A stretch of DNA of 36,972 nucleotides, taken from assembly GCA_965223665.1 (NCBI GenBank), contig CBDCXH010000001.1, positions 1 through 36,972 on the forward strand, in the 5' to 3' direction. Both the position numbers and the translations under genes were made by a program. This DNA is from Nitrospinaceae bacterium. GTDB lineage: Bacteria > Nitrospinota > Nitrospinia > Nitrospinales > Nitrospinaceae. Below are positions 3,210 through 35,449 of this stretch, piece by piece (position 1 is the stretch's first letter; each line of letters opens with the position of its first letter). The notes below the pieces were generated by a model. It was not told the origin of the DNA and did not search any database. It was given only the letters and a program-made list of their open reading frames with translations.

Positions 3210-3791
3210 GTGGAATTAATATCACAAGCGGAATATGCAAGGCGGCGTGGAGTGTCTCGTCAACTTGTCAACAGGTTGACAAAACAAGAACGAATTCCAA
3301 CTCATAATGGAAAAATTAATCCAGTTGAAGCTGATCAAGTTTTGGATAGGGAGTTTGATGAAAAGGAATCCAAAAATGGTAGTAGCTCCAGTGAAAATAA
3401 TTTTTATAAGGAAAAAACTAGGCTCGAAAGTTTAAAGGCGGATTTATATGAAATTAAATTGGCAAGTGAAAGGAAGAAGGTTGTTCCCGTTGAAGTTGTG
3501 TTGGGGGAGTTTGAAAAACTTGTTAAAGCAGTTAAGCAAAGATTGGCAGGGATGGGTAAAAAATTATCTCTTTCGGTTGCCCATGAAACAGATCCAAAAA
3601 AAATTAAAGTCATTATTGATGACGCCATTTTAGAAGCATGCAGCGAGTTTAGACAGTATGACGCAAAAACCGGAAAATGCAGGAGTACTAGCCCTAAGAA
3701 GGGGAATCGAAAAGCTAGCCGCAAACATAAGTCCACCCGAAAAAATACAAATAAGCGAGTGGGCAAACAAACATCGGGTTTTGTCAAGTAA
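3210..3791 (+). CDS. terS: Terminase small subunit (Nu1-like)
   Basis: N-terminal wHTH (ISQAEYARRRGVSRQLV), coiled coil, position between cos and terL. Confidence 0.85.
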   Translation: MELISQAEYARRRGVSRQLVNRLTKQERIPTHNGKINPVEADQVLDREFDEKESKNGSSSSENNFYKEKTRLESLKADLYEIKLASERKKVVPVEVVLGEFEKLVKAVKQRLAGMGKKLSLSVAHETDPKKIKVIIDDAILEACSEFRQYDAKTGKCRSTSPKKGNRKASRKHKSTRKNTNKRVGKQTSGFVK

Positions 3792-5587
3792 TACAAGCGG
3801 CGAGTCTGGAAGGTTTTCCACCGCCCGTGCTCCATTTCAAAATGGGGTGATGGATGCTTTCACCGATCCCAAGGTCGAGGTCATTGTTTGGGTTGCATGT
3901 TCTCAAATTGGAAAGACTGAGACGTTTATTAATAACGTTATTGGTTATTACATCCAACATGATCCCTCGCCAATTATGGTTGTTCAACCAAATTATGACA
4001 TGGCCAAAGCCTGGTCCCAAAACCGTTTTGATTTAATGCTTCAAGACACACCGGTTCTAAGGGGGTTGGTTAAAGAGCCCAGAACCAAGGGAGCTAAAAA
4101 TACTGTTAAGAATAAAGTATTCCCGGACGGCCAATTAATTATTTCCTCTTCTAAATCTCCGTCTTCTTTATCAATGTATCCCATCCGGATTTTATTGTTC
4201 GACGAAGTCGGCCGATATGATGCGAGCGCCAGATCCGAGGGGGATCCTATTGCGCTAGGTAAAAAACGGACCACTACCTATTTCGATCGAAAAATTGGAA
4301 TGACATCAAGCCCGACTATTAAGAATCGATGTCGAATAACCCAGGAATATGAATTAACTGATCAAAGGCAATTTCAAGTTCCTTGTCCAATGTGCAATCA
4401 ACGCCAAGAATTACGGTTCGGTGGGAAAGACAAAGAGTATGGATTGAAATGGGAGTCCGGAAAACCTCACACAGTTTTTTATCTCTGTATTCATTGCCAA
4501 GGAAAAATATATCAGTATGACAAACAGCGAATGTTAACCCTTGGGGATTGGGTAGCCACTCAACCTTTTAATGGTCGAGCTGGTTTCAGAATCAATGAAC
4601 TTTATAGTCCCTGGGTTTCTTGGCAGGAATTAATTGAGAATTTTTTAATAGCAAAAAAAACTTCCGGAAACACTAAAGGTTTTTGTTAACACATCTTTAG
4701 CGGAAACCTGGGAGGAGGAAAGCGAAAAGTTGGAAGCGGATCCTTTGCTCGCAAGGCGCGAGCATTATGGTCCACAAATTCCAAATCAAGTATTGATTGT
4801 CACGGCTGGCATCGATGTCCAGGCCAATCGACTTGAGTGTACTTTTCTCGGTCACGGTACGGATAAAGAAAAGTGGTTACTGGATCACATTGTATTGCCC
4901 GGTGATCCCACAATGGAACCGGTTTGGGATGATTTAGAAAAACAATTGCTAAGGCATTTCGAAGCGGAAGACGGATCCAAACTTCGAGTTGTATCCGCAA
5001 TGATCGATTCCGGGTTTAATACCTTGGATGTTTATAAATTTGTTGGTCCCAGGGAAATTCGAAAAGTATTTGCCAGTAAAGGTGTAGCTACCAATAGCAC
5101 ACCATTTTTAAAACCGGGGACAGTTCGAAATAAGTACGGAGTGACACTTCAAATTATAGGGACCGACCAGGCGAAAGAAGAATTATACAGCCACCTTCGT
5201 TTAAAAAACCCAGGGCCTGGTTATTGCCATTTCCCATTCAAAGGTGTTTTTTCTGAAGAACCATTCAACCTGGAATATTTTAAGGGTCTTACCGCAGAAA
5301 AGAAAGAACGCAAACCAGATAAAAGGGGAAATTTTAAAGATATCTGGATCAAGGAATACAGGCGCAATGAACCATTGGATTGTTATCTGTTGGCGACTGC
5401 AGCGTTCTACATTCTAAAGGTAGATATGGATTCCATTGCGTCCCATCGTTTGGCTTATGTGGAAAAAAATCCTGCACTGGCGCCAAAAGTAAAAGGCAGG
5501 CGAACACTTTCAAAGGAGTGGAATTATAAACATGGCTCAAACCTTAGAACAAGTTCAAGCCCGTTTGCAATTGTACTACGACGCTGA
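3658..5587 (+). CDS. terL: Terminase large subunit, gpA family, split by a frameshift at A8 4653-4660
   Basis: Walker A CSQIGKTE, Walker B LLFDEV, EGDP, AGIDVQ. Removing one A restores AKKLPETLKVFVNTSLAETWEE. A second slip near 5512 would give the end RRTLSKGVEL* at about 5529. Confidence 0.92.
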
Positions 5588-22846: not shown

Positions 22847-23160
22847 TGCCTGTCCGCAAGATTGAAAGAACCAAAGCAGGAATTATGGTCGATGGCCAGT
22901 CCATCGACTATTCCCTTTTGCCCGGAAGCAACAACACCCAAAAGGCTGCAGCATTACAAATCGGGTTGCAGGCTATCATCGATTACAAAATAGATATTAG
23001 CCAAATTGAAGACGGAGACCCGCGAAAAACTTCGGACCCTAAAAAACTAAAAGAGTTTTATGAGGGGGACAAAATAGTTTTTCGCTCCGATACCGTCACC
23101 GTGACCTGGAACACCGAAAGAAACGACTTTGATATTGACATCAACCCCATAAAAGAATAA
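22846..23160 (+). CDS. Hypothetical protein
   Basis: 104 aa, TAATG-coupled on both sides. Confidence 0.65.
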   Translation: MPVRKIERTKAGIMVDGQSIDYSLLPGSNNTQKAAALQIGLQAIIDYKIDISQIEDGDPRKTSDPKKLKEFYEGDKIVFRSDTVTVTWNTERNDFDIDINPIKE

Positions 23161-25859
23161 TGGCTTTCACCCTAAATCAGATCTTTGCTTTTTTAACGCA
23201 GGATTTAACCGATGTCACAAACGGTATTACAAATACACCTGTCGTTTCCCTAGTAGGAAGTGATTATGAATTAGTATGTGAACAGGGGGACCGCGCCCGG
23301 TTTTTAGTTTTCGATGCCGTAGCCAAGGCGGGGGACAACCATGTGGTCATTGGGTATTACACCCGGGTCAATTCCGGTCACACCGGCGATTCGGATATCA
23401 TCAATATAATTGATTCCGGTGGAAGTTTAATTTTAGAACTGCGCGTGATTCATTCTACGGGCGATGTCCAGGTCATCGATTCTAGGGCTGCAGTCAAAGA
23501 CACCATCACCAACCCATTCACCCTTGGGCAAAAACACCGCTTAAAAATTTATTTCGAAAATGCCAACAGCGGCGCCTTTAAAATGGAAGTCGATGGCACC
23601 GAGGTTTCTAATATTACCGCCTGTGATTTCAAAACCGGGAATAATACCGTCGATTATTTAGAACTTAAAACTTCCGGCGGGGGTAAAACTCAGAGGTTTT
23701 CTAAGTGGGTTTGGTACAGCGACGCCACCGACATTACCAACGGGCCCGCGGGGGACATCGATGTGTTGATGTACCAAAAAACCGATGGCGGCACCCAGGA
23801 TCAGGGCGACGCGTTTGACGTGGGCGATTGGGGCAAGGCTTCACAAGCACCGTTCACCACAGGCGCGGGAAACCGAGGGGAATACACGGGGGATCCAAGA
23901 TCGGGTGAAATGATCACCAACAGCGGAACGCGGTCCGGTCCAAGTGGCGATTCCAACGCAAGTGGCACCAACGTCCTGGGTTGTAAAATCATTGGCGATT
24001 TTTCTGCAGGAACCGGCGGCGCTACAAGCTTTTTTATGCGTTATGGAAACGATGTGGACGCCCTCACGGAAGTTGCAGTCACAGTTAATGCCACCAATAC
24101 GATTCTAATGGAAGTGTCGGAATCAGCCAGTGTGGTGCCAACCCTTTCCCAATATTTCCAATTGGGCGGTCGTGTATCCGGACCGGCGGATCTCAGAATC
24201 GAAAACATGGCCGCTTATTTGTTAGTGGAACCGTCTAGTGGTGTGACGGTCACACCCGGACCGGCGGCGGCAAAAGGCGCAGTGGTTGATCCCACCACGG
24301 TGTTGGGTGGCATAACTATTAATGCAGGGAATTCCAGTGCAAGTTCGTTAGTTGTGGATCCTACGGTTCAATTAGGCGGAATTACAATCACCGCCAACCC
24401 GGCCGCAACTCGCGCACTAAATTTCGACCCGAATGTTATTTTGGGAGGAATAACTATTGGGGGAGAAATAGCAGCTGCCAGCGCGGTGGGTGTTGATCCT
24501 CAAGTGGTATTCGGTGGAATCCTGGTCAACCCATCGATCGCGTCGGCCATTGCGGCCGCACTCAACCCACAAGTGGTTTTAGGCGGGATCACTTTAAATG
24601 GTGGATCCGCAGCGGCCATGGCTTTGGGGTTGGATCCGGGTGTGGTGTTGGGTGGAATCACGATTATTTCAACCACCGCAGTTGCCCGGGCATTAGTCAT
24701 CGATCCCAACGTCGATACAAGTTTAGTTTTAAATCCGGATCCGGCCGGAGCTCGCGCATTAATTATTGACCCGAATGTTGTTTTGGGAGGAATCACCATT
24801 GTGGGTGAAATAGCAGCCGCCAGCGCAGCGGGTGTGGATCCACAGGTGGTGTTGGGCGGGATCTTGGTCAACCCATCGATCGCGTCGGCCATTGCGGCCG
24901 CACTCAACCCACAGGTGGTGGTGGGTGGAATTACTTTAAATGGTGGATCCGCAGCGGCCATGGCTTTGGGGTTGGATCCGGGTGTGGTGTTGGGTGGAAT
25001 CACGATCATTTCAACCACCGCAGCTACCCGGGCATTAGTCATCGATCCCAACGTCGACACAAGTTTGGTTTTAAATCCGGATCCGGCCGGAGCTCGCGCA
25101 TTAACTATTGACCCGCAAATTACTTTAGGTGGAATTACAATTAGTGGTGAGGTTGCCAGAGCAAGCGCCTTGGTCGTGGATCCTGGAACGGTGTTAGGGG
25201 GATTAACCATCAATCCGGGATTCGCGGCCGCCATCGCCAATGCTTTGGATGGCAATCCCATTCTGGGCGGCGTGGTCGTCTTTCCAGCATCGGCCAACGC
25301 TAAATCTAATGCGCAAAACCCTGTATTAGAATTAGGCGGGATTACACTGAATGGCGGAATCGCATCGGCCATCGCTCAATCCCTTGATCCGAGTTTAGAA
25401 ACCGGGGGAATCAATATCACGCCGAATCCGGCCGTCCATCGAGCGTTGGTGAATGATCCCGTGATCAGTTTGGGAGGGTTGTCAATTTCACCGAATCCCG
25501 CAGCGGTCCGCGTGTTGGCACTCGACCCGCAAATCGGGTTCGGTGGGATCACTATAAACCCCAACCCGGCAATCGCTCGGACTCTGGTAATGGACCCTAA
25601 TGCCTTCGCCGGAGGAATTTTAATCACTGCCATACCCGCCGGAGCTCGCGCAAACAGTATTGACCCGAATATTATTTTAGGACCGGTGACATTAACTCCG
25701 ACACCGGCGGCTGCCAGGGCATTAGGGATAGATCCAAACACTTTATTGGTTTGGATTTTAGATGTGGATCCACTTCGCACTTACAAGGTTCCCAAAGAGA
25801 TCCGGAAATATGTAATTCCATATGAAAATCGTATTTATAAAGTTGAGGTGAATCAATGA
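23160..25859 (+). CDS. Repetitive fibre protein: beta-rich N-terminal domain plus about 25 ~19-20-aa (DPxVxLGGITI) repeats
   Basis: Repeats are visible in the translation; short C-terminal anchor-like segment RTYKVP..R.YVIP.ENR. Confidence 0.75.
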   Translation: MAFTLNQIFAFLTQDLTDVTNGITNTPVVSLVGSDYELVCEQGDRARFLVFDAVAKAGDNHVVIGYYTRVNSGHTGDSDIINIIDSGGSLILELRVIHSTGDVQVIDSRAAVKDTITNPFTLGQKHRLKIYFENANSGAFKMEVDGTEVSNITACDFKTGNNTVDYLELKTSGGGKTQRFSKWVWYSDATDITNGPAGDIDVLMYQKTDGGTQDQGDAFDVGDWGKASQAPFTTGAGNRGEYTGDPRSGEMITNSGTRSGPSGDSNASGTNVLGCKIIGDFSAGTGGATSFFMRYGNDVDALTEVAVTVNATNTILMEVSESASVVPTLSQYFQLGGRVSGPADLRIENMAAYLLVEPSSGVTVTPGPAAAKGAVVDPTTVLGGITINAGNSSASSLVVDPTVQLGGITITANPAATRALNFDPNVILGGITIGGEIAAASAVGVDPQVVFGGILVNPSIASAIAAALNPQVVLGGITLNGGSAAAMALGLDPGVVLGGITIISTTAVARALVIDPNVDTSLVLNPDPAGARALIIDPNVVLGGITIVGEIAAASAAGVDPQVVLGGILVNPSIASAIAAALNPQVVVGGITLNGGSAAAMALGLDPGVVLGGITIISTTAATRALVIDPNVDTSLVLNPDPAGARALTIDPQITLGGITISGEVARASALVVDPGTVLGGLTINPGFAAAIANALDGNPILGGVVVFPASANAKSNAQNPVLELGGITLNGGIASAIAQSLDPSLETGGINITPNPAVHRALVNDPVISLGGLSISPNPAAVRVLALDPQIGFGGITINPNPAIARTLVMDPNAFAGGILITAIPAGARANSIDPNIILGPVTLTPTPAAARALGIDPNTLLVWILDVDPLRTYKVPKEIRKYVIPYENRIYKVEVNQ
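24409..25115 (+). repeat. 342-bp (114-aa) internal tandem duplication
   Basis: gtggatccgcagcggccatgg at 24601 and 24943; ctcgcgca..gacccg at about 24409, 24751 and 25093. Confidence 0.9.
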
Positions 25860-27830: not shown

Positions 27831-28550
27831 CTAACCTTTTTCTTCTTTTTTTTCGTCTGCAATTTTAATAATCTCGTTTAGGTTTTGTTGTCTTTCTTCC
27901 CTGTGGACATACCATTCTTTAAAAAGAAACTCTAAAAGTTGAATTAATTTTTCGGCTTCCCCGGGTTCTACATTAATAATTAGATCTACATCTTTTTCCA
28001 TGTGAGCACCAATATTTCCTATATTCCGGACGGCATCAATGGCTTGCCACGTGGTGGAATCGATCCGGTCTTTTAAAGCGTCGATTTCTTGTTTTAAGGT
28101 GTACTTATCAGTTATTTCCCAAAAATCTCTTATCATACCTTGTAGTGCCCGACGGCATAACGTGGCTGCAGCCTTGGGGCTTTTATCTAAAATGCTACAG
28201 GCTTCGTAATAGTCTTCTCTAATTTGCTCAGGAACACAAGCAGGTTGAGGTTTTGATTTAGAATCAGGACGAAGCAACCAATGATTGGAGGTTACAATTA
28301 TCGAACCTCTACCGCCACCTTGACGGTCCACCCAAACCAGTGAGGATTCTAATACTATTTCTCTGCACTTTTTATTGGGGCAAACTATCGCTTTGTTTGC
28401 AATATACATTTGTTTTTCAAAGCTACTATATTCAGATTCTTTAATTACAGTCCTAACGTAGGTTTCAATTTCCTCGGTTATGGTTGCATGGCCACCACAA
28501 AAAGGACACTCCCACGGATAACTTTTTTTTGGATCTAATATTTTTGTCAT
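27831..28550 (-). CDS. DUF4145 (HEPN-like) protein with N-terminal Zn-ribbon
   Basis: CPFC..CPNKKC; DYYEA......SPKAAATLCRRALQ; RNIGNIGAH. Confidence 0.85.
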   Translation of the reverse strand: MTKILDPKKSYPWECPFCGGHATITEEIETYVRTVIKESEYSSFEKQMYIANKAIVCPNKKCREIVLESSLVWVDRQGGGRGSIIVTSNHWLLRPDSKSKPQPACVPEQIREDYYEACSILDKSPKAAATLCRRALQGMIRDFWEITDKYTLKQEIDALKDRIDSTTWQAIDAVRNIGNIGAHMEKDVDLIINVEPGEAEKLIQLLEFLFKEWYVHREERQQNLNEIIKIADEKKEEKG

Positions 28551-28594
28551 CTACCCAACTCCCAATGCGGCTAAAACTTCTTGGTGATCCATTC
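28551..28594 (-). repeat. Displaced copy of the lipoprotein gene's 3' end (MDHQEVLAALGVG*)
   Basis: 28558-28594 is identical (37 bp) to 29288-29324; the last codons differ only synonymously. Confidence 0.95.
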
Positions 28595-28595
28595 T

Positions 28596-29276
28596 TTAAT
28601 TATTTTCTTCTTTTGGTTTGCTGGGATTCGTCACCCCTAACAAAGATCGGAATTCAGCCTCTATTTTATCCATTAACCCCGGAACAACCTCAGTCAAGGC
28701 ATTTAAAGCCTCTCGCCAAGCTTCGCCTGTTTTGTCAGAGGGTCTACCGCTTAATTCTTCGGTAGTTCGCCAAAATCTTAATCTATCAGCAGGTTCAATG
28801 GCCTGAAATATAAGTTCTTCAATTTCCCTACATAGTTTCTCAGGAAAATAAATTTTTTTTGTATTATAAAACTTTTTAAAAACAAAATAATTTTTATTAA
28901 AATCCGTATTTTCTTCATTTCCTGTTTGGATGAAACTATTTGTTGAGTTCAATAAATTTACTAAAAATGAGTATAATTCGCCAATAATTTCTAACCTTTT
29001 TTCCACAAGCAAAGTTTTGCTTTGTTTGTATTCTAAACTATTTATCTGAAGGTCATGGCTGGCTTTTTGGATTTCAAGTTTACTTTCTGTTTCTAACTCA
29101 TTTTTAAATGCTTCTTTTTCCTTATCAAGCTCAGACTTATATTTTGCTAAATTTTTCGATAATGAGTTTTCAATTATTTGTTTTGCAAAAAATTTAGCCG
29201 CACCAATTATTGCTCCGACAACAACTGAAATACCACCTAATGTTTTTATTACACTCCAAATATCCGCCAAATCCAT
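28596..29276 (-). CDS. N-terminally membrane-anchored coiled-coil protein, unknown function
   Basis: TM segment LGGISVVVGAIIGAA, then a K/E-rich coil; very AT-rich. Confidence 0.8.
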   Translation of the reverse strand: MDLADIWSVIKTLGGISVVVGAIIGAAKFFAKQIIENSLSKNLAKYKSELDKEKEAFKNELETESKLEIQKASHDLQINSLEYKQSKTLLVEKRLEIIGELYSFLVNLLNSTNSFIQTGNEENTDFNKNYFVFKKFYNTKKIYFPEKLCREIEELIFQAIEPADRLRFWRTTEELSGRPSDKTGEAWREALNALTEVVPGLMDKIEAEFRSLLGVTNPSKPKEENN

Positions 29277-29280
29277 ACTC

Positions 29281-29841
29281 TCATCCCACTCCCAATGCGG
29301 CTAAAACTTCTTGGTGATCCATTCCTTTTTTGTTTTCCATTAATTCAGTGCCGGTTTGAATTTCCCAGCAACCCGGGCACGATTGTATTTTTTTTAAAAT
29401 TCCTTTATCCATGACCATCGCTTGATCGGGTTGGTACAATAAAATTTCGTGAGTGTTATCCCATACAAAACGTTTTGGGGGACCCATCGCATAAAACAGT
29501 TTATACACGTCATCCCCAGGTTGAATCTTTTTTTGATCCAGTCGACTTAATGTTTCCGGATCCCATTTTTTTTTCTTTTGCAGCGTATTCCATCGAAACG
29601 CATAGGCAATATTATAGTTCTTTTGGTTCACCTCATATTTTTTCACTTCTGGGAATTGCTTATAAAAATCAAACCAGTTTTGCGGAGTTAGTTGATTGTC
29701 AAGGTATGCAGCAATTGGGACACCATTATATTGATTAACCTCCGATGCACTTTTAAAGCCAACCGGTTTGTAATAATATTCCGTGCCCGCGCAACCAATC
29801 AGGAATAATAAGGGTATTGAAATAAAAAGAAATCGATTCAT
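29281..29841 (-). CDS. Lipoprotein B (paralog of 32088-32675)
   Basis: Start MNRFLF at 29841 (RBS GAGGAG); lipobox LIGC; CxxC near the C-terminus. Confidence 0.85.
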   Translation of the reverse strand: MNRFLFISIPLLFLIGCAGTEYYYKPVGFKSASEVNQYNGVPIAAYLDNQLTPQNWFDFYKQFPEVKKYEVNQKNYNIAYAFRWNTLQKKKKWDPETLSRLDQKKIQPGDDVYKLFYAMGPPKRFVWDNTHEILLYQPDQAMVMDKGILKKIQSCPGCWEIQTGTELMENKKGMDHQEVLAALGVG

Positions 29842-29860
29842 GGAATACTCCTCTTTATGA

Positions 29861-29923
29861 TGGATTTCTTTAAACCTTATTAAATTCCGCTTAGGCAATC
29901 AAGAAAATTTTGACATATCGAAT
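29861..29923 (-). promoter_or_regulatory. Promoter repeat R5
   Basis: Minus strand TTGATT(29902-29897)-17 bp-TAAGGT(29879-29874). Confidence 0.8.
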
Positions 29924-30084
29924 ATTTTTATAGTAAAAGGGACTATCGATTAAGCGAAAAAACTTTATTGTTTCGTCAATGACCGGAAAATCAAACTTGT
30001 GGGGGTTGCCGGACACCAATAAATAACAGGAGCTAGGGCATTCTTAATTTTCACTAGAGATACTGAACTGGGAGGATATTTATT

Positions 30085-30762
30085 ATGAAAGCTACCACGT
30101 TAGCAGTTATGTCAGGCGGGTTGGATTCAACAGTGCTAGGCCAAAAACTTAAGTCGGAAGGTGTTCCATTTCGAGCGATATATTTCGACATTGGTTACCT
30201 TCCGCGGGTAGCAGAAAGAAACGCTGCTAAATATGCTTGTTTCCAATTAGATACGCCGTTAGAAATCGTCAATCTAAGTGGAATGTTTGAAATGGTTTCA
30301 GGTTTCGTTCCAAATGAAATGCTTGGTTTGGATGAGGCTGATAAAGGACAGCCAAAATCGGAAGTACACATTCCCGGTGATCCAGATTATGTAAGTGGGT
30401 TTCATTGTATAACTTCCCTTGCTTCATACTATGCCTTACTAGCGGAAATTGAAACTATCAGTGTTGGGTTGATTCGTAATCAAGTAGATTACAATGATCG
30501 TTTAAAAAACTTCATCGCAGAGTTTCCAGCTTGCGCAGGCCACTTAAACCCAAGTCGTAATTTTCGACTGGAAGCACCATTTGCTGGAATGTATAAATCG
30601 GAAGTTGTAGAACTCGGCGTAAAGCTTGGTGTAAATTTAGAGCGTACTTGGAGTTGCTATAATGGTGGTAGGCAACATTGTGGTGTTTGCCCCGGATGTA
30701 ATGGCCGTAAGCAGGCGTTTCAGGATGCTAAAGTCGATGATCTCACAAGTTATGACGAATGA
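30085..30762 (+). CDS. Divergent QueC-family (PP-loop, Zn-binding) protein
   Basis: SGGLDS PP-loop; K.EVVELG..LGV..E.TWSCY...HCGVCPGC..R; RBS GGAGG. Confidence 0.88.
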   Translation: MKATTLAVMSGGLDSTVLGQKLKSEGVPFRAIYFDIGYLPRVAERNAAKYACFQLDTPLEIVNLSGMFEMVSGFVPNEMLGLDEADKGQPKSEVHIPGDPDYVSGFHCITSLASYYALLAEIETISVGLIRNQVDYNDRLKNFIAEFPACAGHLNPSRNFRLEAPFAGMYKSEVVELGVKLGVNLERTWSCYNGGRQHCGVCPGCNGRKQAFQDAKVDDLTSYDE

Positions 30763-30818
30763 AAATTGCGTCATTCTGAAGATATCGATCATTAACTTTT
30801 ATCCATAAGTTAATATTC

Positions 30819-30852
30819 AGGCAATCAAGAAAAATTTGGCGTATTAAATCAA
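30819..30852 (-). repeat. Truncated promoter repeat R4 (-35 half only)
   Basis: aggcaatcaagaaaaatttggcgtattaaatcaa; similarity stops before the -10 element. Confidence 0.85.
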
Positions 30853-30888
30853 GTGGTCCGGAGGGTATTGTTTTAACAGTTGGTTGTA
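30844..30888 (-). pseudogene. 3' remnant of a homolog of ORF 34776-34997
   Basis: Translates YNQLLKQYPPDHLI* versus YGKLLKQSRQGKLI*, in the same register to the repeat. Confidence 0.7.
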
Positions 30889-30934
30889 TTATGGAAAAAA
30901 CATGAATTAAATTTATTTATAGGTTTAACTTCCA

Positions 30935-31366
30935 TTAGTTTGTACAAGGAAAAGCTTCCGAAATTGCCTTAATAACTAACGCTGCGGCGTCCAAATGAAG
31001 TTTTTCTGGGTGATCATTTAACCATTTTTTTACAATTTTTTCCATTTGGCCAGCGGTGTAACCTAAGGGGAGATCAATACAAATATTTTTAAAACCTTCC
31101 TTACTTTGTTTACCTGGGTTAAAAGAGGAAAATTCGTGTGTATGAGTAAGGTTTCCTTTAAAATCAGCCATAAACTTAATAGAAGAAGTAATCCCAAAAA
31201 TATACCCTGTGCAGTAAGCACTATTCTGAAACTTTATGGGTTCACGGGTGTCAGTGCATATATTTTGCAACGTATTTCCAGAAAAACCATTCCCACTTTC
31301 ACCCAAATCAGCAAAAGAAAAGAATACAATAAGCCCTAATACAGCTATTGACGTTGATGGTTTCAT
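30935..31366 (-). CDS. Rap1a/Tai-family immunity-like exported protein
   Basis: Signal peptide from ATG 31366; GN.L...C, C.GYI.G, IC..P......Q...IV.KWL..HPE.LH..AA.LV..A...AFPC. Confidence 0.85.
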   Translation of the reverse strand: MKPSTSIAVLGLIVFFSFADLGESGNGFSGNTLQNICTDTREPIKFQNSAYCTGYIFGITSSIKFMADFKGNLTHTHEFSSFNPGKQSKEGFKNICIDLPLGYTAGQMEKIVKKWLNDHPEKLHLDAAALVIKAISEAFPCTN

Positions 31367-31393
31367 GATTTCTTCTCGCAAAAATTTTTTAAA

Positions 31394-31452
31394 GATTTTC
31401 CCCAACCTAATCCATTCAGCTAAGGCAATCAAAAAAAATTGGGAACATTAAA
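31394..31452 (-). promoter_or_regulatory. Promoter repeat R3
   Basis: TTGATT(31432-31427)-17 bp-TAGGTT(31409-31404). Confidence 0.8.
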
Positions 31453-31596
31453 GGTTTTGCTCGGGGTCATCGGCGAGTTTAAAAGCATACGGTTTCCCGC
31501 CACCGTGGCACAGCCAGTCTTAATCCAACCCACGCAGGCATGTGGGCTTTGAGGAGCAGTCTTTCCAGTCGGGTGCCAAACGTTGTCTTTCTCCCT

Positions 31597-32064
31597 TCAA
31601 TCAAGGTTTGCTAATTTGTTCATCTTATCTATTAGGGGTTGCACAGGTTTCAAACCTTTTCCACTCCCTAACATTATAGATTGTGCTTGAATCTGAGCAC
31701 TGAGCGCGTTTAGTTTAGCCGTGACTTCCATAGAATGTACTTGTTTAGATAATGCCTCCTCTGCTTTTTCCTGGGCATCGGCAAACCTTTTCATTTCTTT
31801 TCTTTGAGCTTCTAGTTCTTCCCTTTGATAGACCAACTCTTGTCTTTGAAGTAAGATTGCGAAAATTACCCCAGCAAATGCAAAGCCTGAGAAAAGAGAG
31901 TTCAATCCTCCAAACATATCACCCCAAACACCAGCATTTTCTGCTTTACCTATAAAAGTAACTACTAGGCACCAATAAATAAGCCATACAGCGAAAACTC
32001 CTAAAATAAACAACAGGAAATGTTTCATTGAAAAAACTGTCTCACTTGATTTCGTGTTGCTCAT
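31597..32064 (-). CDS. Two-TM plus coiled-coil protein resembling the N-terminal module of 'putative abortive infection' proteins
   Basis: GVWGDMFGGLNSLFSGFAFAGVIFAILLQRQEL..QREEL motif; likely start ATG 32064 (RBS GAGGAG). Confidence 0.7.
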   Translation of the reverse strand: MSNTKSSETVFSMKHFLLFILGVFAVWLIYWCLVVTFIGKAENAGVWGDMFGGLNSLFSGFAFAGVIFAILLQRQELVYQREELEAQRKEMKRFADAQEKAEEALSKQVHSMEVTAKLNALSAQIQAQSIMLGSGKGLKPVQPLIDKMNKLANLD

Positions 32065-32087
32065 TATATTCTCCTCTTGTCCCATAT

Positions 32088-32675
32088 TCACCCCACTCCC
32101 AAAGCGGTTAATACTTCCGGTTCTGCCATGCCGCGCCTATCACCCATCATTTCGTCACCCGAAGGAAGTTGCCAACACCCCTTACAGGATCGAATTTCTT
32201 TTAGGACTCCATGGTCCATAATCAATGCTTTGTCCGGTTCATAGATTAGAATTTCATGATCATTATTCCAAATAATTCGCCTTGGGGGGCCGAGTGCATA
32301 AATAGCTTTGAAGTGATTATCACCTGGTTGAGTTTTATTTTTATCCAACCGTTGAACTGTGGTTTTGTCCCATTGTTGTTTTCGTTTTAAAGTGGTCCAT
32401 CGCCAGGCGTAGGCGGTGTAATAAGGATGATACTCCATAGTGTTTCCAAATTGATTGGCCTGTTGGATATCGTTCCAATACTCCGGAAACTCTTTATAAA
32501 ACGTCCGCCATTCTTCCCGGGATAATTGTAGGGCTAAATAATGAGTGGTCGGGTATTGAATGTAAGGCTTTACTTCATCAATCGTATTAAACCCTGCCGG
32601 TTTAAAATTCCGCTCTAGGTTGACACAACCAAAAATGAAAAATAATATTGTTATCAAAGAAACTATTCGCTTCAT
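32088..32675 (-). CDS. Lipoprotein A
   Basis: Lipobox IFGC; colinear with lipoprotein B, ending EVLTALGVG*. Confidence 0.85.
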   Translation of the reverse strand: MKRIVSLITILFFIFGCVNLERNFKPAGFNTIDEVKPYIQYPTTHYLALQLSREEWRTFYKEFPEYWNDIQQANQFGNTMEYHPYYTAYAWRWTTLKRKQQWDKTTVQRLDKNKTQPGDNHFKAIYALGPPRRIIWNNDHEILIYEPDKALIMDHGVLKEIRSCKGCWQLPSGDEMMGDRRGMAEPEVLTALGVG

Positions 32676-32689
32676 TTTTAACTCACTTT

Positions 32690-32986
32690 TTATAATTCAA
32701 TCCTTTTTAAAACTTCGACAGGTCCATCTAATTGAAACCCTTCGGCTTCAATTTCGTCCGGAGTCAACTCTATATAATCCACACAATCGGACCAAGGGGA
32801 AGGGGGGATTTCTGCTCCAACATTTTTTGGGTTTGACGGTATCCAATGACTATAATCTTCTGCAAATGTTTGAGCAGTTTTTTCGCTAGCTGCTCTTATG
32901 AAGAGTCCAATAGCCCCAGATTTACAGTGTCCCCATCTTTCATCGTTTTTTTTTGATTGAATAGGAGTTACTTTAAAAATTTTCAT
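32690..32986 (-). CDS. Hypothetical protein (98 aa)
   Basis: Likely start MKIFKV at 32986 with RBS GGAG. Confidence 0.65.
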   Translation of the reverse strand: MKIFKVTPIQSKKNDERWGHCKSGAIGLFIRAASEKTAQTFAEDYSHWIPSNPKNVGAEIPPSPWSDCVDYIELTPDEIEAEGFQLDGPVEVLKRIEL

Positions 32987-33005
32987 AATACTTCTCCAAT
33001 GAGAT

Positions 33006-33281
33006 TCACCACTTTTTTTCTTTGGGGATTTGGGATTCGCGCATCCCACCATTTCTGCTTATTCTGGGTTCTCGCAAATATTGAGCTAGTTCCTGTAAAA
33101 TTATATTTTGTTTCTGAACATTTTCATTAGTCCGCTTTACGTACACTTTGATTCGGTACACAAACCAGGGCAAAAAGATCGCCAACACAAATAAAACGAT
33201 GGCGACAATCCAAACTAAAAGCAATCCGCTTCCCGCACCTAATACATCTAACGAGTCATCAAACTTATAAGGAGAATTCAT
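33006..33281 (-). CDS. Small single-TM protein
   Basis: Hydrophobic LLLVWIVAIVLFVLAIFLPWFV; first gene after R2. Confidence 0.7.
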   Translation of the reverse strand: MNSPYKFDDSLDVLGAGSGLLLVWIVAIVLFVLAIFLPWFVYRIKVYVKRTNENVQKQNIILQELAQYLREPRISRNGGMRESQIPKEKKW

Positions 33282-33297
33282 AAGTCACCTGTTTTTA

Positions 33298-33364
33298 TGG
33301 ATTTTCCCTCAACCCTAATCCATTCCGTTTAGGCAATCAAGAAAAATTTGGCATGTTAAATTAG
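33298..33364 (-). promoter_or_regulatory. Promoter repeat R2
   Basis: TTGATT(33340-33335)-17 bp-TAGGGT(33317-33312); nearly identical to R1. Confidence 0.85.
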
Positions 33365-33434
33365 TTTTCCGCTTCGCAAAGGTTTTCGATTATCTTGTTT
33401 TCCCTGAACGGCGCCTATCGGCCATAAGCGGACA

Positions 33435-34643
33435 TTAACCCGCATATATTTTTGACATCTGATTTTTCAAACGTTGTAGCAACTCATCATAAGTCATTAC
33501 TTCAACATTTTTTAAAGATGTCCTTAATATTCTAAAATCCGCCTCTTTCTCAGGTGTGTCTAGCTGGTCTGTATGTCCCATAATTACAACAGCCCTTGGT
33601 CTAACAACAGAAACTACCACTCCTCGTTCTCTCGCAACATCTTCTGCAAGATTTGACGCTTTTCTTTCAGCATTGAATAAATATTTTTCTGCTTGCATAA
33701 GTGCCTTAACAGCGTCAGAGCTCCAATAGAAATTACCTCTGTCAGTCGTTGCGGAGAGCAACTTCGTTACTGGCTTTTTGATTTCAAATAGGTCTAGGTA
33801 TCCCTGCGAATCTACTAAACCAAAATCCACTTTACGCTGACTGCCTAAAACCACATTCAATTCATGAATTACGGAAATATATTTCGAGTCGATCAGATAT
33901 AAATGTTTTTGAAGAAAGTCACCCCATTTCGCTTCTGTCTCGTTCTTTACGAGCATCCTTTTATAAGTGTTGATTGTTTCTTTTAGAGCTACTTCGTCGA
34001 CTTTTAGCTTTGCAGCACCAAACAGTTTTCTTCTTCGAGCAGCGGAAGAGTATTTACCAGAAAGCAAACTCTCCATAAAATCGAGGTATTTTTCAACATC
34101 ATCTGCTTCTAAGTGTTCAATGATGCTGGGATCAAGATTACGAGTCACACGAGCCGCGCGTTGACGCCCAGGAAGCTCAGCTTTATGAAATTTTGAAGGA
34201 AACTCCTGATGGAAAAATTCATCTACAGCTAAACTTCTTTCCCTTTTATTTTCGTTTGATAGCTCTGTTAGTCGACTTTTGAGCTGTTTTAGTCCGTCAT
34301 ATCCCAGAATAAATGTGAGCTTTCCACCATATGAACGGAGTGTGCTAGTACCATTTTTTACAACGCGAAAGACTTTAACTTCCTTACCTTGAAATTTTTT
34401 TACGAAATAGTAGCTCAGACCGGCTTTAAAATAGCCAAGCTCAGAAATCTCGGGGGGAATTCTTTTAAATCCGATAATTTCTACTTTATTTGTAATGAAT
34501 TCATGGCGAGGATAGAAATCAATCTTTTCATTTTCAGCATCTATTGTAAATGTAAGATGACGCTCTCCTGGTTTCTCAGTGTCGATTATATAAACTGATT
34601 CTGTACCATCATCATGTATTTCTTTATCTGTTTCTAATGGCAT
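33435..34643 (-). CDS. sduA: Shedu (DUF4263) anti-phage nuclease
   Basis: E..W..FL, VDF..VD..G..DLFEIKKP, W.S...KA..Q..KY, RPRAVVIMG, FR..R..L..VEVMTYDELL.R. Confidence 0.9.
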   Translation of the reverse strand: MPLETDKEIHDDGTESVYIIDTEKPGERHLTFTIDAENEKIDFYPRHEFITNKVEIIGFKRIPPEISELGYFKAGLSYYFVKKFQGKEVKVFRVVKNGTSTLRSYGGKLTFILGYDGLKQLKSRLTELSNENKRERSLAVDEFFHQEFPSKFHKAELPGRQRAARVTRNLDPSIIEHLEADDVEKYLDFMESLLSGKYSSAARRRKLFGAAKLKVDEVALKETINTYKRMLVKNETEAKWGDFLQKHLYLIDSKYISVIHELNVVLGSQRKVDFGLVDSQGYLDLFEIKKPVTKLLSATTDRGNFYWSSDAVKALMQAEKYLFNAERKASNLAEDVARERGVVVSVVRPRAVVIMGHTDQLDTPEKEADFRILRTSLKNVEVMTYDELLQRLKNQMSKIYAG

Positions 34644-34720
34644 TGTGGAATTCCGATCCTATTAATCCAATACTCTCTTCAGTGTCCGCTTTGGGTCGAA
34701 AGCCGTCACATTTTTTTTCG

Positions 34721-34784
34721 TGGATTCCCCAACCCTAATCTATTCCGTTTAGGCAATCAAGAAATATTTGGCATATTAAATCAA
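34721..34784 (-). promoter_or_regulatory. Promoter repeat R1
   Basis: TTGATT(34760-34755)-17 bp-TAGGGT(34737-34732); overlaps the stop of ORF 34776-34997. Confidence 0.85.
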
Positions 34785-34997
34785 CTTACCTTGGCGGGAC
34801 TGTTTCAGTAATTTCCCATAAAGCCCGGAGTTAAAGAATTTCGTTTGGCTTTTTGAGTTTCGAAGTAATGGGCATGGCTCGTATTCCATCATTACCTCTT
34901 CCACGCTTTCTTTAGTTTTAATATCAATAACTTTTGATTCTGGGGGTGGTGCCGGTTTTACGATCGCGGTATTGTTTTTTTTGGCCTTGCGCGTCAA
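34776..34997 (-). CDS. 73-aa hypothetical protein coupled to the repressor
   Basis: TTG start overlaps the repressor's TGA; its C-terminus is conserved at protein level in two displaced remnants. Confidence 0.65.
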   Translation of the reverse strand: MTRKAKKNNTAIVKPAPPPESKVIDIKTKESVEEVMMEYEPCPLLRNSKSQTKFFNSGLYGKLLKQSRQGKLI

Positions 34998-35449
34998 CCC
35001 TGAGCGAAATTTTGGCTTTTCGCTTTGGCAAGTTCTTCTTTTAGGTGGGCATTTTCCTTCCTCAGTTCTTTTACCTCAACCTTTAAATTTGAAACGTCCT
35101 CTATTAAATCTTTGATCAATTGGCGCATATTCTCCCCCTCTTCAACCTTCGAATTTTCAATAGCATTCGATTCTATCTTTTGAGACTGGTTTTCTTCAAG
35201 AGGGTTATAGGGATATTTTCCTAATTTTTCCCTAATAATGTTTGGGTTGTCAAATAATTCACTGACAGAACATTTGAATATAATTGATAATTTTTTCAGT
35301 TTTTTCGCATCAAGTTTTTTAGGGGGATTATTCTCCCATGTGTTTATCGTTTGATAAGAAACTCCAATAAAATCAGCTAGTTGAGTCTGTGACAACCTCA
35401 TGTATTTTCTTATTAACTGGACGTTTTCTTTAAAGTTTTCTATATTCAC
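34994..35449 (-). CDS. XRE-family HTH repressor (CI-like) with C-terminal coiled coil
   Basis: IRKYMRLSQTQLADFIGVSYQTINTWEN; divergent from the early operon; no S24 peptidase domain seen. Confidence 0.9.
   Translation of the reverse strand: MNIENFKENVQLIRKYMRLSQTQLADFIGVSYQTINTWENNPPKKLDAKKLKKLSIIFKCSVSELFDNPNIIREKLGKYPYNPLEENQSQKIESNAIENSKVEEGENMRQLIKDLIEDVSNLKVEVKELRKENAHLKEELAKAKSQNFAQG

Follow-up and report, generated by a model that had tools for sequence, protein, structure and literature searches.

A lipoprotein gene end duplicated around an orphan gene in a putative phage accessory operon: a possible scar of gene gain by recombination

Here we analyse a stretch of 36,972 nucleotides (nt) from a Nitrospinaceae bacterium (positions 1 to 36,972 of contig CBDCXH010000001.1, GenBank assembly GCA_965223665.1), referred to as the window, and within it three consecutive minus-strand genes, encoding a lipoprotein (lipoprotein B), a protein of 226 amino acids (aa) and a DUF4145 protein, the second of which lies between two direct copies of the 3' end of the first. 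Read on the minus strand, the lipoprotein B gene ends in ENKKGMDHQEVLAALGVG-TGA and is followed by GAGT and by the ATG of the 226-aa open reading frame (ORF), which closes with ...KPKEENN-TAA; AGA then leads to ATG GAT CAC...GGA GTT GGG TAG, the second copy of the lipoprotein end, directly followed by the ATG of the DUF4145 gene. Coordinates are collected in Table 1.

The initial annotation of this DNA had reported a perfect 37-bp repeat closely bracketing the 226-aa gene, final codons differing only synonymously, and a displaced copy of a true lipoprotein end; all three are borne out. A maximal exact repeat search recovered the repeat, whose copies are identical at 37 out of 37 positions and lie 730 nt apart, at 1 nt from the stop codon of the 226-aa ORF on the downstream side and at 11 nt from its ATG on the upstream one. 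A 32-nt core of the repeat is found at 2 places in the window, while 0 are expected (100 shuffles). Exact direct repeats of at least 18 nt number seven in the window; the four others of at least 31 nt all fall in the tandem repeats of a tail-fibre gene (24.5-25.1 kb), and the 37-nt repeat is the longest one apart from the internal repeats of that gene.

Alignment of the two tail copies shows that homology covers 44 nt, up to the stop codon, with 4 differences, all confined to the final 7 nt (hypergeometric P=2.6e-4), the ancestry boundary being sharp and placed directly after GGGAGT. The differences, GTG/GTT, GGA/GGG and TGA/TAG, are all silent, the change from stop to stop requiring two substitutions, and both copies translate to MDHQEVLAALGVG followed by a stop codon. 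The final codons read GTT GGG TAG in the displaced copy, GTG GGA TGA in lipoprotein B and GTG GGG TGA in its paralogue, lipoprotein A. A further extension of the repeat upstream, to 53 nt (91%), was discarded: it rests on 9 matches out of 16 nt in A-rich sequence, a score equalled by 310 of the 7603 16-mers of the surrounding island (4%).

The displaced copy forms a 13-codon relic. Its stop codon, TAG (28551-28553), is directly adjacent to the start codon of the DUF4145 gene (ATG, 28548-28550), and GGGAG is located 7-8 nt before that ATG. When 1691 six-frame peptides were compared to a hidden Markov model (HMM) of the tail, built on 21 other members of the lipoprotein family, the relic ranked first, though with an E value of only about 1. 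The GGGAG of the tail provides a Shine-Dalgarno site both to the DUF4145 gene (-6.8 kcal/mol, spacing 7), for which this site inside the relic is the only one, and to the 226-aa gene (-6.9, spacing 9); lipoprotein A, too, has a site of this kind embedded in its tail, ahead of the next ATG. The mini-ORF made up by the relic has no such site of its own (-1.8 kcal/mol), and for this reason looks like a leftover and not like a device for coupling. The earlier proposal that the ribosome-binding site (RBS) and translational coupling were kept for the displaced gene thus holds as far as the GGGAG and the TAG/ATG junction are concerned, and is not supported for the mini-ORF as coupling device. Most likely, the sole role left to the relic is to supply a Shine-Dalgarno site and start context to the DUF4145 gene.

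The 226-aa ORF, the relic and the DUF4145 ORF share one frame (28539-28643, minus strand), being split only by TAA-AGA and by TAG; the chance of three ORFs sharing a frame in this way is about 1 in 9. Stop-codon recoding was rejected as the cause, as TAA, TAG and TGA all close well-supported genes of the island and the DUF4145 gene itself ends in TAG. RNA folding at the repeats gave z-scores of 0.00 and 0.69 against shuffles, with no attC-like palindrome or terminator hairpin. No terminal inverted repeats were found at 28595 or 29287, only AT-rich chance inverted repeats, and family scans of the window proteins found no transposase; an insertion sequence or transposon with target-site duplication is not supported on either count.

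That the tail is a genuine part of the lipoprotein follows from two observations: the C-terminal motif GMxDxEVLxxLGL(xRPxY) is conserved throughout the alignment of the family, which counts 32 representative clusters among 1.84 billion, and in the AlphaFold model of lipoprotein B (predicted local distance difference test, pLDDT, 90.9) the tail is a confident terminal helix (176-183). A lipobox cysteine ends the signal peptide in the translations of lipoprotein B (LLFLIGC) and lipoprotein A (FFIFGC), and is aligned in most family members. Lipoprotein B has a Shine-Dalgarno site of its own, GAGGAG (-8.6 kcal/mol), and falls into no Pfam, NCBIfam or PADLOC family; a profile search of the PDB with this protein gave no match. 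Attempts to assign a function by fold were equally unproductive: no match passed E<=0.001, the best being BamE for the PDB (E=0.19) and one at 2.2e-3 for BFVD, where small phage lipoproteins, matched at 3.3e-3 and 1.2e-2, are a lead only.

Genome scans for the lipoprotein yielded 0 relatives among 92 pattern matches in the first round and 1 confirmed out of 36 in the second. This sole genomic homologue (locus L001, 5977-6582) is a single gene of 38% GC, located just downstream of glmS in a tubeworm-symbiont genome of 56% GC, a contrast which suggests that the lipoprotein gene itself may move horizontally.

Lipoprotein A carries a third tail, which differs at 11 of the 44 nt. As had been noted from the start, each of the three tails precedes a different gene, and the 226-aa protein is unrelated to the 164-aa protein coupled to lipoprotein A (E=2.6). 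The idea of a hotspot, with the same insertion at a second target, is not supported: the tail of lipoprotein A reflects paralogy and is no scar, since the two lipoproteins are paralogues and the tail motif is family-wide, and no displaced tail was found after the 164-aa gene (3 matches only).

The 226-aa gene has a GC content of 32.0%, and of 24.7% at third codon positions (GC3), whereas both flanking genes stand at 38.3%. Its product matches only itself among 5.8 billion proteins, and nothing in family scans including Pfam, PADLOC and PHROG; structure prediction returned an all-helical model (pLDDT 67.6), whose look-alikes in the atlas are clusters without names. The hydrophobic N-terminal stretch is read, from sequence, as a putative membrane helix. 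Its C-terminus (..EFRSLLGVTNPSKP..), judged by eye to be a full-length family tail, was rejected as such, the tail HMM of 21 family members giving no detection.

The DUF4145 protein belongs to PF13643 (1.6e-13, 50.9 bits against a cut-off of 23.1) and matches PADLOC PD-T7-4 (2.2e-15) and phrog_1305 (4.3e-40). It also aligns to the PDB entry 9y9c, of 24 chains, with E=3.2e-5, the active-site R and H being aligned (RNIGNIGAH vs RIVGNQAVH). CPFC and CPNKKC occur in the translated N-terminus, which shows a weak Lar_restr_allev match under the cut-off and corresponds to a stretch with no significant 9y9c alignment. By these similarities the protein is identified as a homologue of the anti-phage RNase RAZR (PD-T7-4). 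According to the excerpted account in PMC13017515, RAZR combines a zinc finger with a HEPN-like RNase, assembles on phage ring proteins and then aborts infection; the R...H motif of its DUF4145 (HEPN-like) domain is described in the same source. The DUF4145 family is large and widely scattered, with 3628 matches (best 52% identity), and has members in Streptococcus prophages.

The three genes lie at one end of a defence/accessory island, in which, from 27.8 to 35.4 kb, genes are on the minus strand and GC falls from 45% to 38.5%. Five copies of a promoter-like element of about 60-80 nt, featuring a TTGATT box and an ATGGATT..AATCCAT inverted repeat, are mutually 67-81% alike. The copy preceding lipoprotein B is the presumed promoter of an operon comprising the lipoprotein B, 226-aa and DUF4145 genes; no terminator-like sites were found between these genes (28500-29350), and the three probably form a single minus-strand operon. 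The copy at 30817-30837 is truncated past its core and faces a QueC-like gene of opposite orientation, into whose 3' end it points; this gene looks as if it had been dropped between two promoter copies. This gene stands alone in the island, and the Rap1a-type protein is of the type VI secretion immunity kind.

The window is assigned, by PHROG and Pfam scans, to a lambda-like siphovirus, whose portal protein is at most 48% identical to those of isolated phages; scans for tRNAs and Rfam families gave no matches in the window. Integrase or recombinase domains were found in 0 out of 38 window proteins scanned with Pfam, and the island occupies the place where lambda-like phages usually have int/att. 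The large terminase subunit is split in two frames, 3658-4689 and 4730-5587 (phrog_15 positions 334-673 and 693-950), which overlap around a run of eight A (4653-4660). Possible causes are a sequencing error in the homopolymer, decay to a pseudogene in a defective prophage, and programmed frameshifting. The tail-fibre gene (23160-25859) contains internal tandem repeats at 24399-25380, of 342 nt and 89% identical, derived from 69-nt units, which give rise to exact repeats of up to 74 nt. At 801-877, six tandem 11-nt units (CGGAAACnnnn), reaching into the start of a gene (839-1708) with a DnaA N-terminal domain, look like candidate replication-origin iterons.

Table 1. Features of the locus and of the surrounding window
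Feature	Coordinates	Strand	Description	Basis
37-nt exact repeat, downstream copy	28558..28594	-		Maximal exact repeat search
37-nt exact repeat, upstream copy	29288..29324	-	Within the working 3' end of lipoprotein B	Maximal exact repeat search
Displaced lipoprotein 3' end, 13-codon relic	28551..28592	-	MDHQEVLAALGVG and stop; in frame with the 226-aa and DUF4145 ORFs; carries GGGAG
226-aa ORF	28596..29276	-	No detectable relatives; lowest GC of the island
Lipoprotein B gene	29281..29841	-	186 aa from ATG at 29841 (ORF extendable to TTG at 29898); signal peptide, lipobox LIGC; ends ...GMDHQEVLAALGVG and stop
DUF4145/RAZR (PD-T7-4)-like gene	27831..28550	-	239 aa; putative zinc ribbon and HEPN-like RNase domain	PF13643, PADLOC, PHROG, PDB
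Promoter/operator-like element before lipoprotein B	29854..29932	-	One of the five island copies
Promoter/operator-like element, five copies	29891-29911, 30817-30837, 31421-31441, 33329-33349, 34749-34769	- (all)	Core AAATTTTTCTTGATTGCCTAA; one before each cassette
Lipoprotein A gene	32088..32675	-	Paralogue, 45% identical to B; third tail at 32092-32144
164-aa membrane/coiled-coil protein	31597..32091	-	Coupled to lipoprotein A	phrog_8999, 5e-08
Defence/accessory island	27831-35449		PD-T7-4/RAZR-like DUF4145, QueC-like (plus strand), Rap1a-type immunity protein, Shedu SduA, helix-turn-helix (HTH) repressor, two paralogous lipoproteins	Pfam, PADLOC
Plus-strand phage genes	~2.5-27.5 kb	+	Split large terminase, portal, protease, capsid, tape measure, J-like central fibre, pectate-lyase-type spike	PHROG and Pfam scans

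To the view that the locus is a recombination scar of gene gain, within the defence/accessory operon of a phage, we give about an even chance. Two versions of the same lipoprotein gene would have existed, one followed by DUF4145 (...GGAGTT GGG TAG-ATG) and the other by the 226-aa gene (...GGAGTG GGA TGA-GAGT-ATG), and recombination via their shared 3' end would have placed both downstream modules in tandem, preserving the lipoprotein reading frame through one tail and leaving the other tail as the 13-codon relic. One junction would be homologous, hidden in the tail or in lipoprotein B, and the other illegitimate, between TAAA and GAATGG. The promoter-like element preceding lipoprotein B would now drive all three genes, and the 37-nt repeats would allow the loss of the 226-aa gene by repeat-mediated recombination, with a clean lipoprotein B-DUF4145 junction as outcome. 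The repeat with its significance, the mosaic boundary, the coding character of the relic, the location of the RBSs and the layout of the operon are direct results; direction, mechanism and timing, as well as any circular intermediate, are what we infer from them.

Several observations point to this history. The differences between the tails are all silent, from stop to stop included, while a freely drifting relic would differ otherwise; both tails must, for this reason, have diverged while closing working lipoprotein genes, which implies that one lipoprotein allele once preceded DUF4145 and another the 226-aa gene. The shape of the scar would follow from the fact that a downstream gene, moving with its translation signals, carries a piece of the tail along. 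Gene gain is also supported by the visibly modular make-up of the island, with its five copies of one promoter-like element. As to the timing, the event had been called recent: the tail repeat, being 100% identical against 67-81% for the promoter copies, does indicate a duplication younger than the cassette array, but 0 differences out of 37 bound the divergence only below about 8%, and identity of the tails could also be maintained by selection on the RBS or by gene conversion. The 226-aa gene may have been inserted, or DUF4145 may have been appended together with a piece of the tail; we favour the 226-aa gene as the probable newcomer, because it is a compositional outlier and has no relatives.

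A number of points weigh against this reconstruction. Comparative support is nil, lipoprotein B, like the 226-aa protein, having matched only itself when homologues were searched in the protein collection. No match to the lipoprotein was found in phages or plasmids, blastn returning just one irrelevant match of 123 nt, and the homologue near glmS has neither a coupled downstream gene nor flanking repeats. The pair formed by lipoprotein A and the 164-aa membrane/coiled-coil protein suggests that lipoprotein B and the 226-aa protein could be a native pair, to which DUF4145 was added. The GC contrast of the 226-aa gene is modest within a heterogeneous island, where the Rap1a-like and HTH genes stand at 35.6% and 33.8%, respectively. 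Finally, 0 differences out of 37 beside 4 out of 7 are more than one simple event can account for on its own, and none of the 38 scanned proteins is encoded by a recombinase gene.

The most serious rival, which we nevertheless regard as unlikely, reverses the direction of the event: lipoprotein B and the 226-aa membrane protein would be native, and DUF4145 would have arrived later, from a genome where a near-identical lipoprotein preceded it, bringing along 44 nt of the lipoprotein end because its RBS lies there. The position of the DUF4145 Shine-Dalgarno site within the relic fits this order of events, as do the occurrence, after each of the two lipoproteins, of a protein with a membrane segment and long helices, and the nature of DUF4145/RAZR as a huge, scattered family of stand-alone genes. 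The two proteins following the lipoproteins are, however, unrelated, the compositional outlier is the 226-aa gene rather than DUF4145, and the donor would still have to carry a lipoprotein gene with the same 37 nt.

The scar of gene gain might also be replaced by a scar of loss, an explanation that we consider improbable. Two full cassettes, promoter-lipoprotein B-226-aa gene and promoter-third lipoprotein-DUF4145, would have stood side by side, the second promoter and the third lipoprotein being subsequently lost except for 13 codons. The island is indeed an array of promoter-headed cassettes, and already contains two lipoprotein paralogues. The identity pattern fits poorly: a paralogue as diverged as lipoprotein A would not be identical at 37 out of 37 positions, and a recent duplicate would not show 4 differences in its last 7 nt, so that the deletion model needs an additional step of gene conversion.

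Slightly less probable still is a dedicated cassette system, in which the last 37-44 nt of the lipoprotein gene would act as an att-like docking site for promoterless single-gene cassettes, which would integrate and excise there in the form of circles of about 0.7 kb. The recombinase would be encoded elsewhere, and each cassette would bring a substitute end and start context, and be expressed by coupling to the lipoprotein operon. What recommends it is the sharp boundary of identity, beyond which the gene end has diverged by synonymous changes only, the pattern of integrative elements that restore the 3' end of their target gene, such as e14 and phage 21 in icd. These are kilobase-long elements, which encode an integrase and supply a substitute 3' end. 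The present locus resembles them in that the two junctions share an identical core, the ORF stays whole through a substitute end whose differences are synonymous, and a displaced end remains at the far junction; it differs from them in that its unit is 730 nt long and holds one gene, which is not a recombinase. Against it stand the single known instance, the lack of a recombinase among the window proteins, and the failure to find a hairpin, an attC-like fold (z about 0) or terminal inverted repeats. If true, such a system would amount to an integron-like platform for gene capture, located in the defence island of a phage and working without an integron integrase, where the 3' end of a gene and its RBS form the recombination site.

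Two explanations fare worst, and both appear to us very unlikely. The contig might be a product of assembly, threading a population variant, or a small molecule sharing the repeat, at the common 37-mer, and it is present only once in the contig counts of the protein collection; both junctions, however, leave three intact ORFs in the same frame with sensible RBSs, the second copy of the repeat is no simple k-mer loop, because the two tail ends differ, and common assemblers, we infer, end with a k that exceeds the length of the repeat. That the mini-ORF is kept as a leader peptide, or serves to couple translation of the toxic RNase gene, is suggested by its position, in frame 3 nt past the TAA of the 226-aa gene and with its TAG abutting an ATG, and opposed by the missing Shine-Dalgarno site, by a sequence that is simply the lipoprotein tail and by the lack of any special RNA fold in the region.

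Gain of the 226-aa gene, as favoured here, invites comparison with known systems of gene acquisition in phages and bacteria. Classical morons of lambdoid phages carry their own promoter and terminator. The 226-aa gene is likewise an addition of distinct composition to the late/accessory region of such a lambda-like phage, but it has neither signal of its own and relies on the lipoprotein operon. In PeSL shuffling, outlined for T4-type phages in the excerpted text of Arbiol et al. (2010, PMC2839356), orphan ORFs located between short conserved cassettes are gained and lost, and can form mini-circles. Here too an orphan ORF lies in a plastic phage region and has a short conserved sequence, directly repeated, on either side; the ORF would be deleted, or a small circle freed, if the repeats recombined, and the insertion would be harmless and the gene expressed. 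The PeSL flanks are, in that description, cassettes of about 100 bp with a promoter and a stem-loop terminator, whereas at the present locus they consist of a lipoprotein coding 3' end with an RBS, and of no hairpin or terminator. The five promoter-like repeats of the island are a closer analogue of PeSL, yet they do not flank the 226-aa gene.

Orphan modules downstream of rhs and cdiA genes are preceded by a fragment of the conserved end of the upstream gene, with homology, in an example from the portion of Koskiniemi et al. (2014, PMC3967940) drawn on here, of 522 bp at 95%. The common trait is a fragment of the conserved end of an upstream gene, placed downstream before a different module and providing homology for later recombination. 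In those systems, however, hundreds of bp are involved and a toxin tip is swapped with its immunity gene, while here 44 nt are repeated, the lipoprotein tail stays the same and whole downstream genes differ; lipoprotein B is not a toxin of the Rhs/CdiA type, and the likeness is one of architecture only. Integron gene cassettes, reported in phages according to the excerpt of PMC9892861, are similarly promoterless single genes, which depend on a promoter lying upstream and have repeated sites at their boundaries, but no attC-type palindrome is found here, and none of the 38 scanned window proteins is an integron integrase. The 226-aa unit belongs to none of PeSL, rhs orphan modules and icd-type elements, because its flank is neither promoter nor terminator, the upstream gene is no polymorphic toxin and an integrase is absent. 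In the paper library searched, no case turned up of a phage accessory operon where a coding 3' end is duplicated on both sides of a gene, which is not proof of absence.

One instance without relatives is an anecdote, and less a discovery than a pattern to search for, in which the end of a gene recurs ahead of the following one. If the proposed gene gain is correct, the locus would be a clean, dated example of how a phage can enlarge a defence operon by one gene and leave both neighbours unbroken. Duplication of the gene end would spare the lipoprotein as well as the RBS of the RAZR-like, potentially toxic RNase, and the newcomer would be flanked by repeats that permit its precise loss. Cassette shuffling by short homology would then extend from promoter and terminator motifs to the coding 3' ends of genes.

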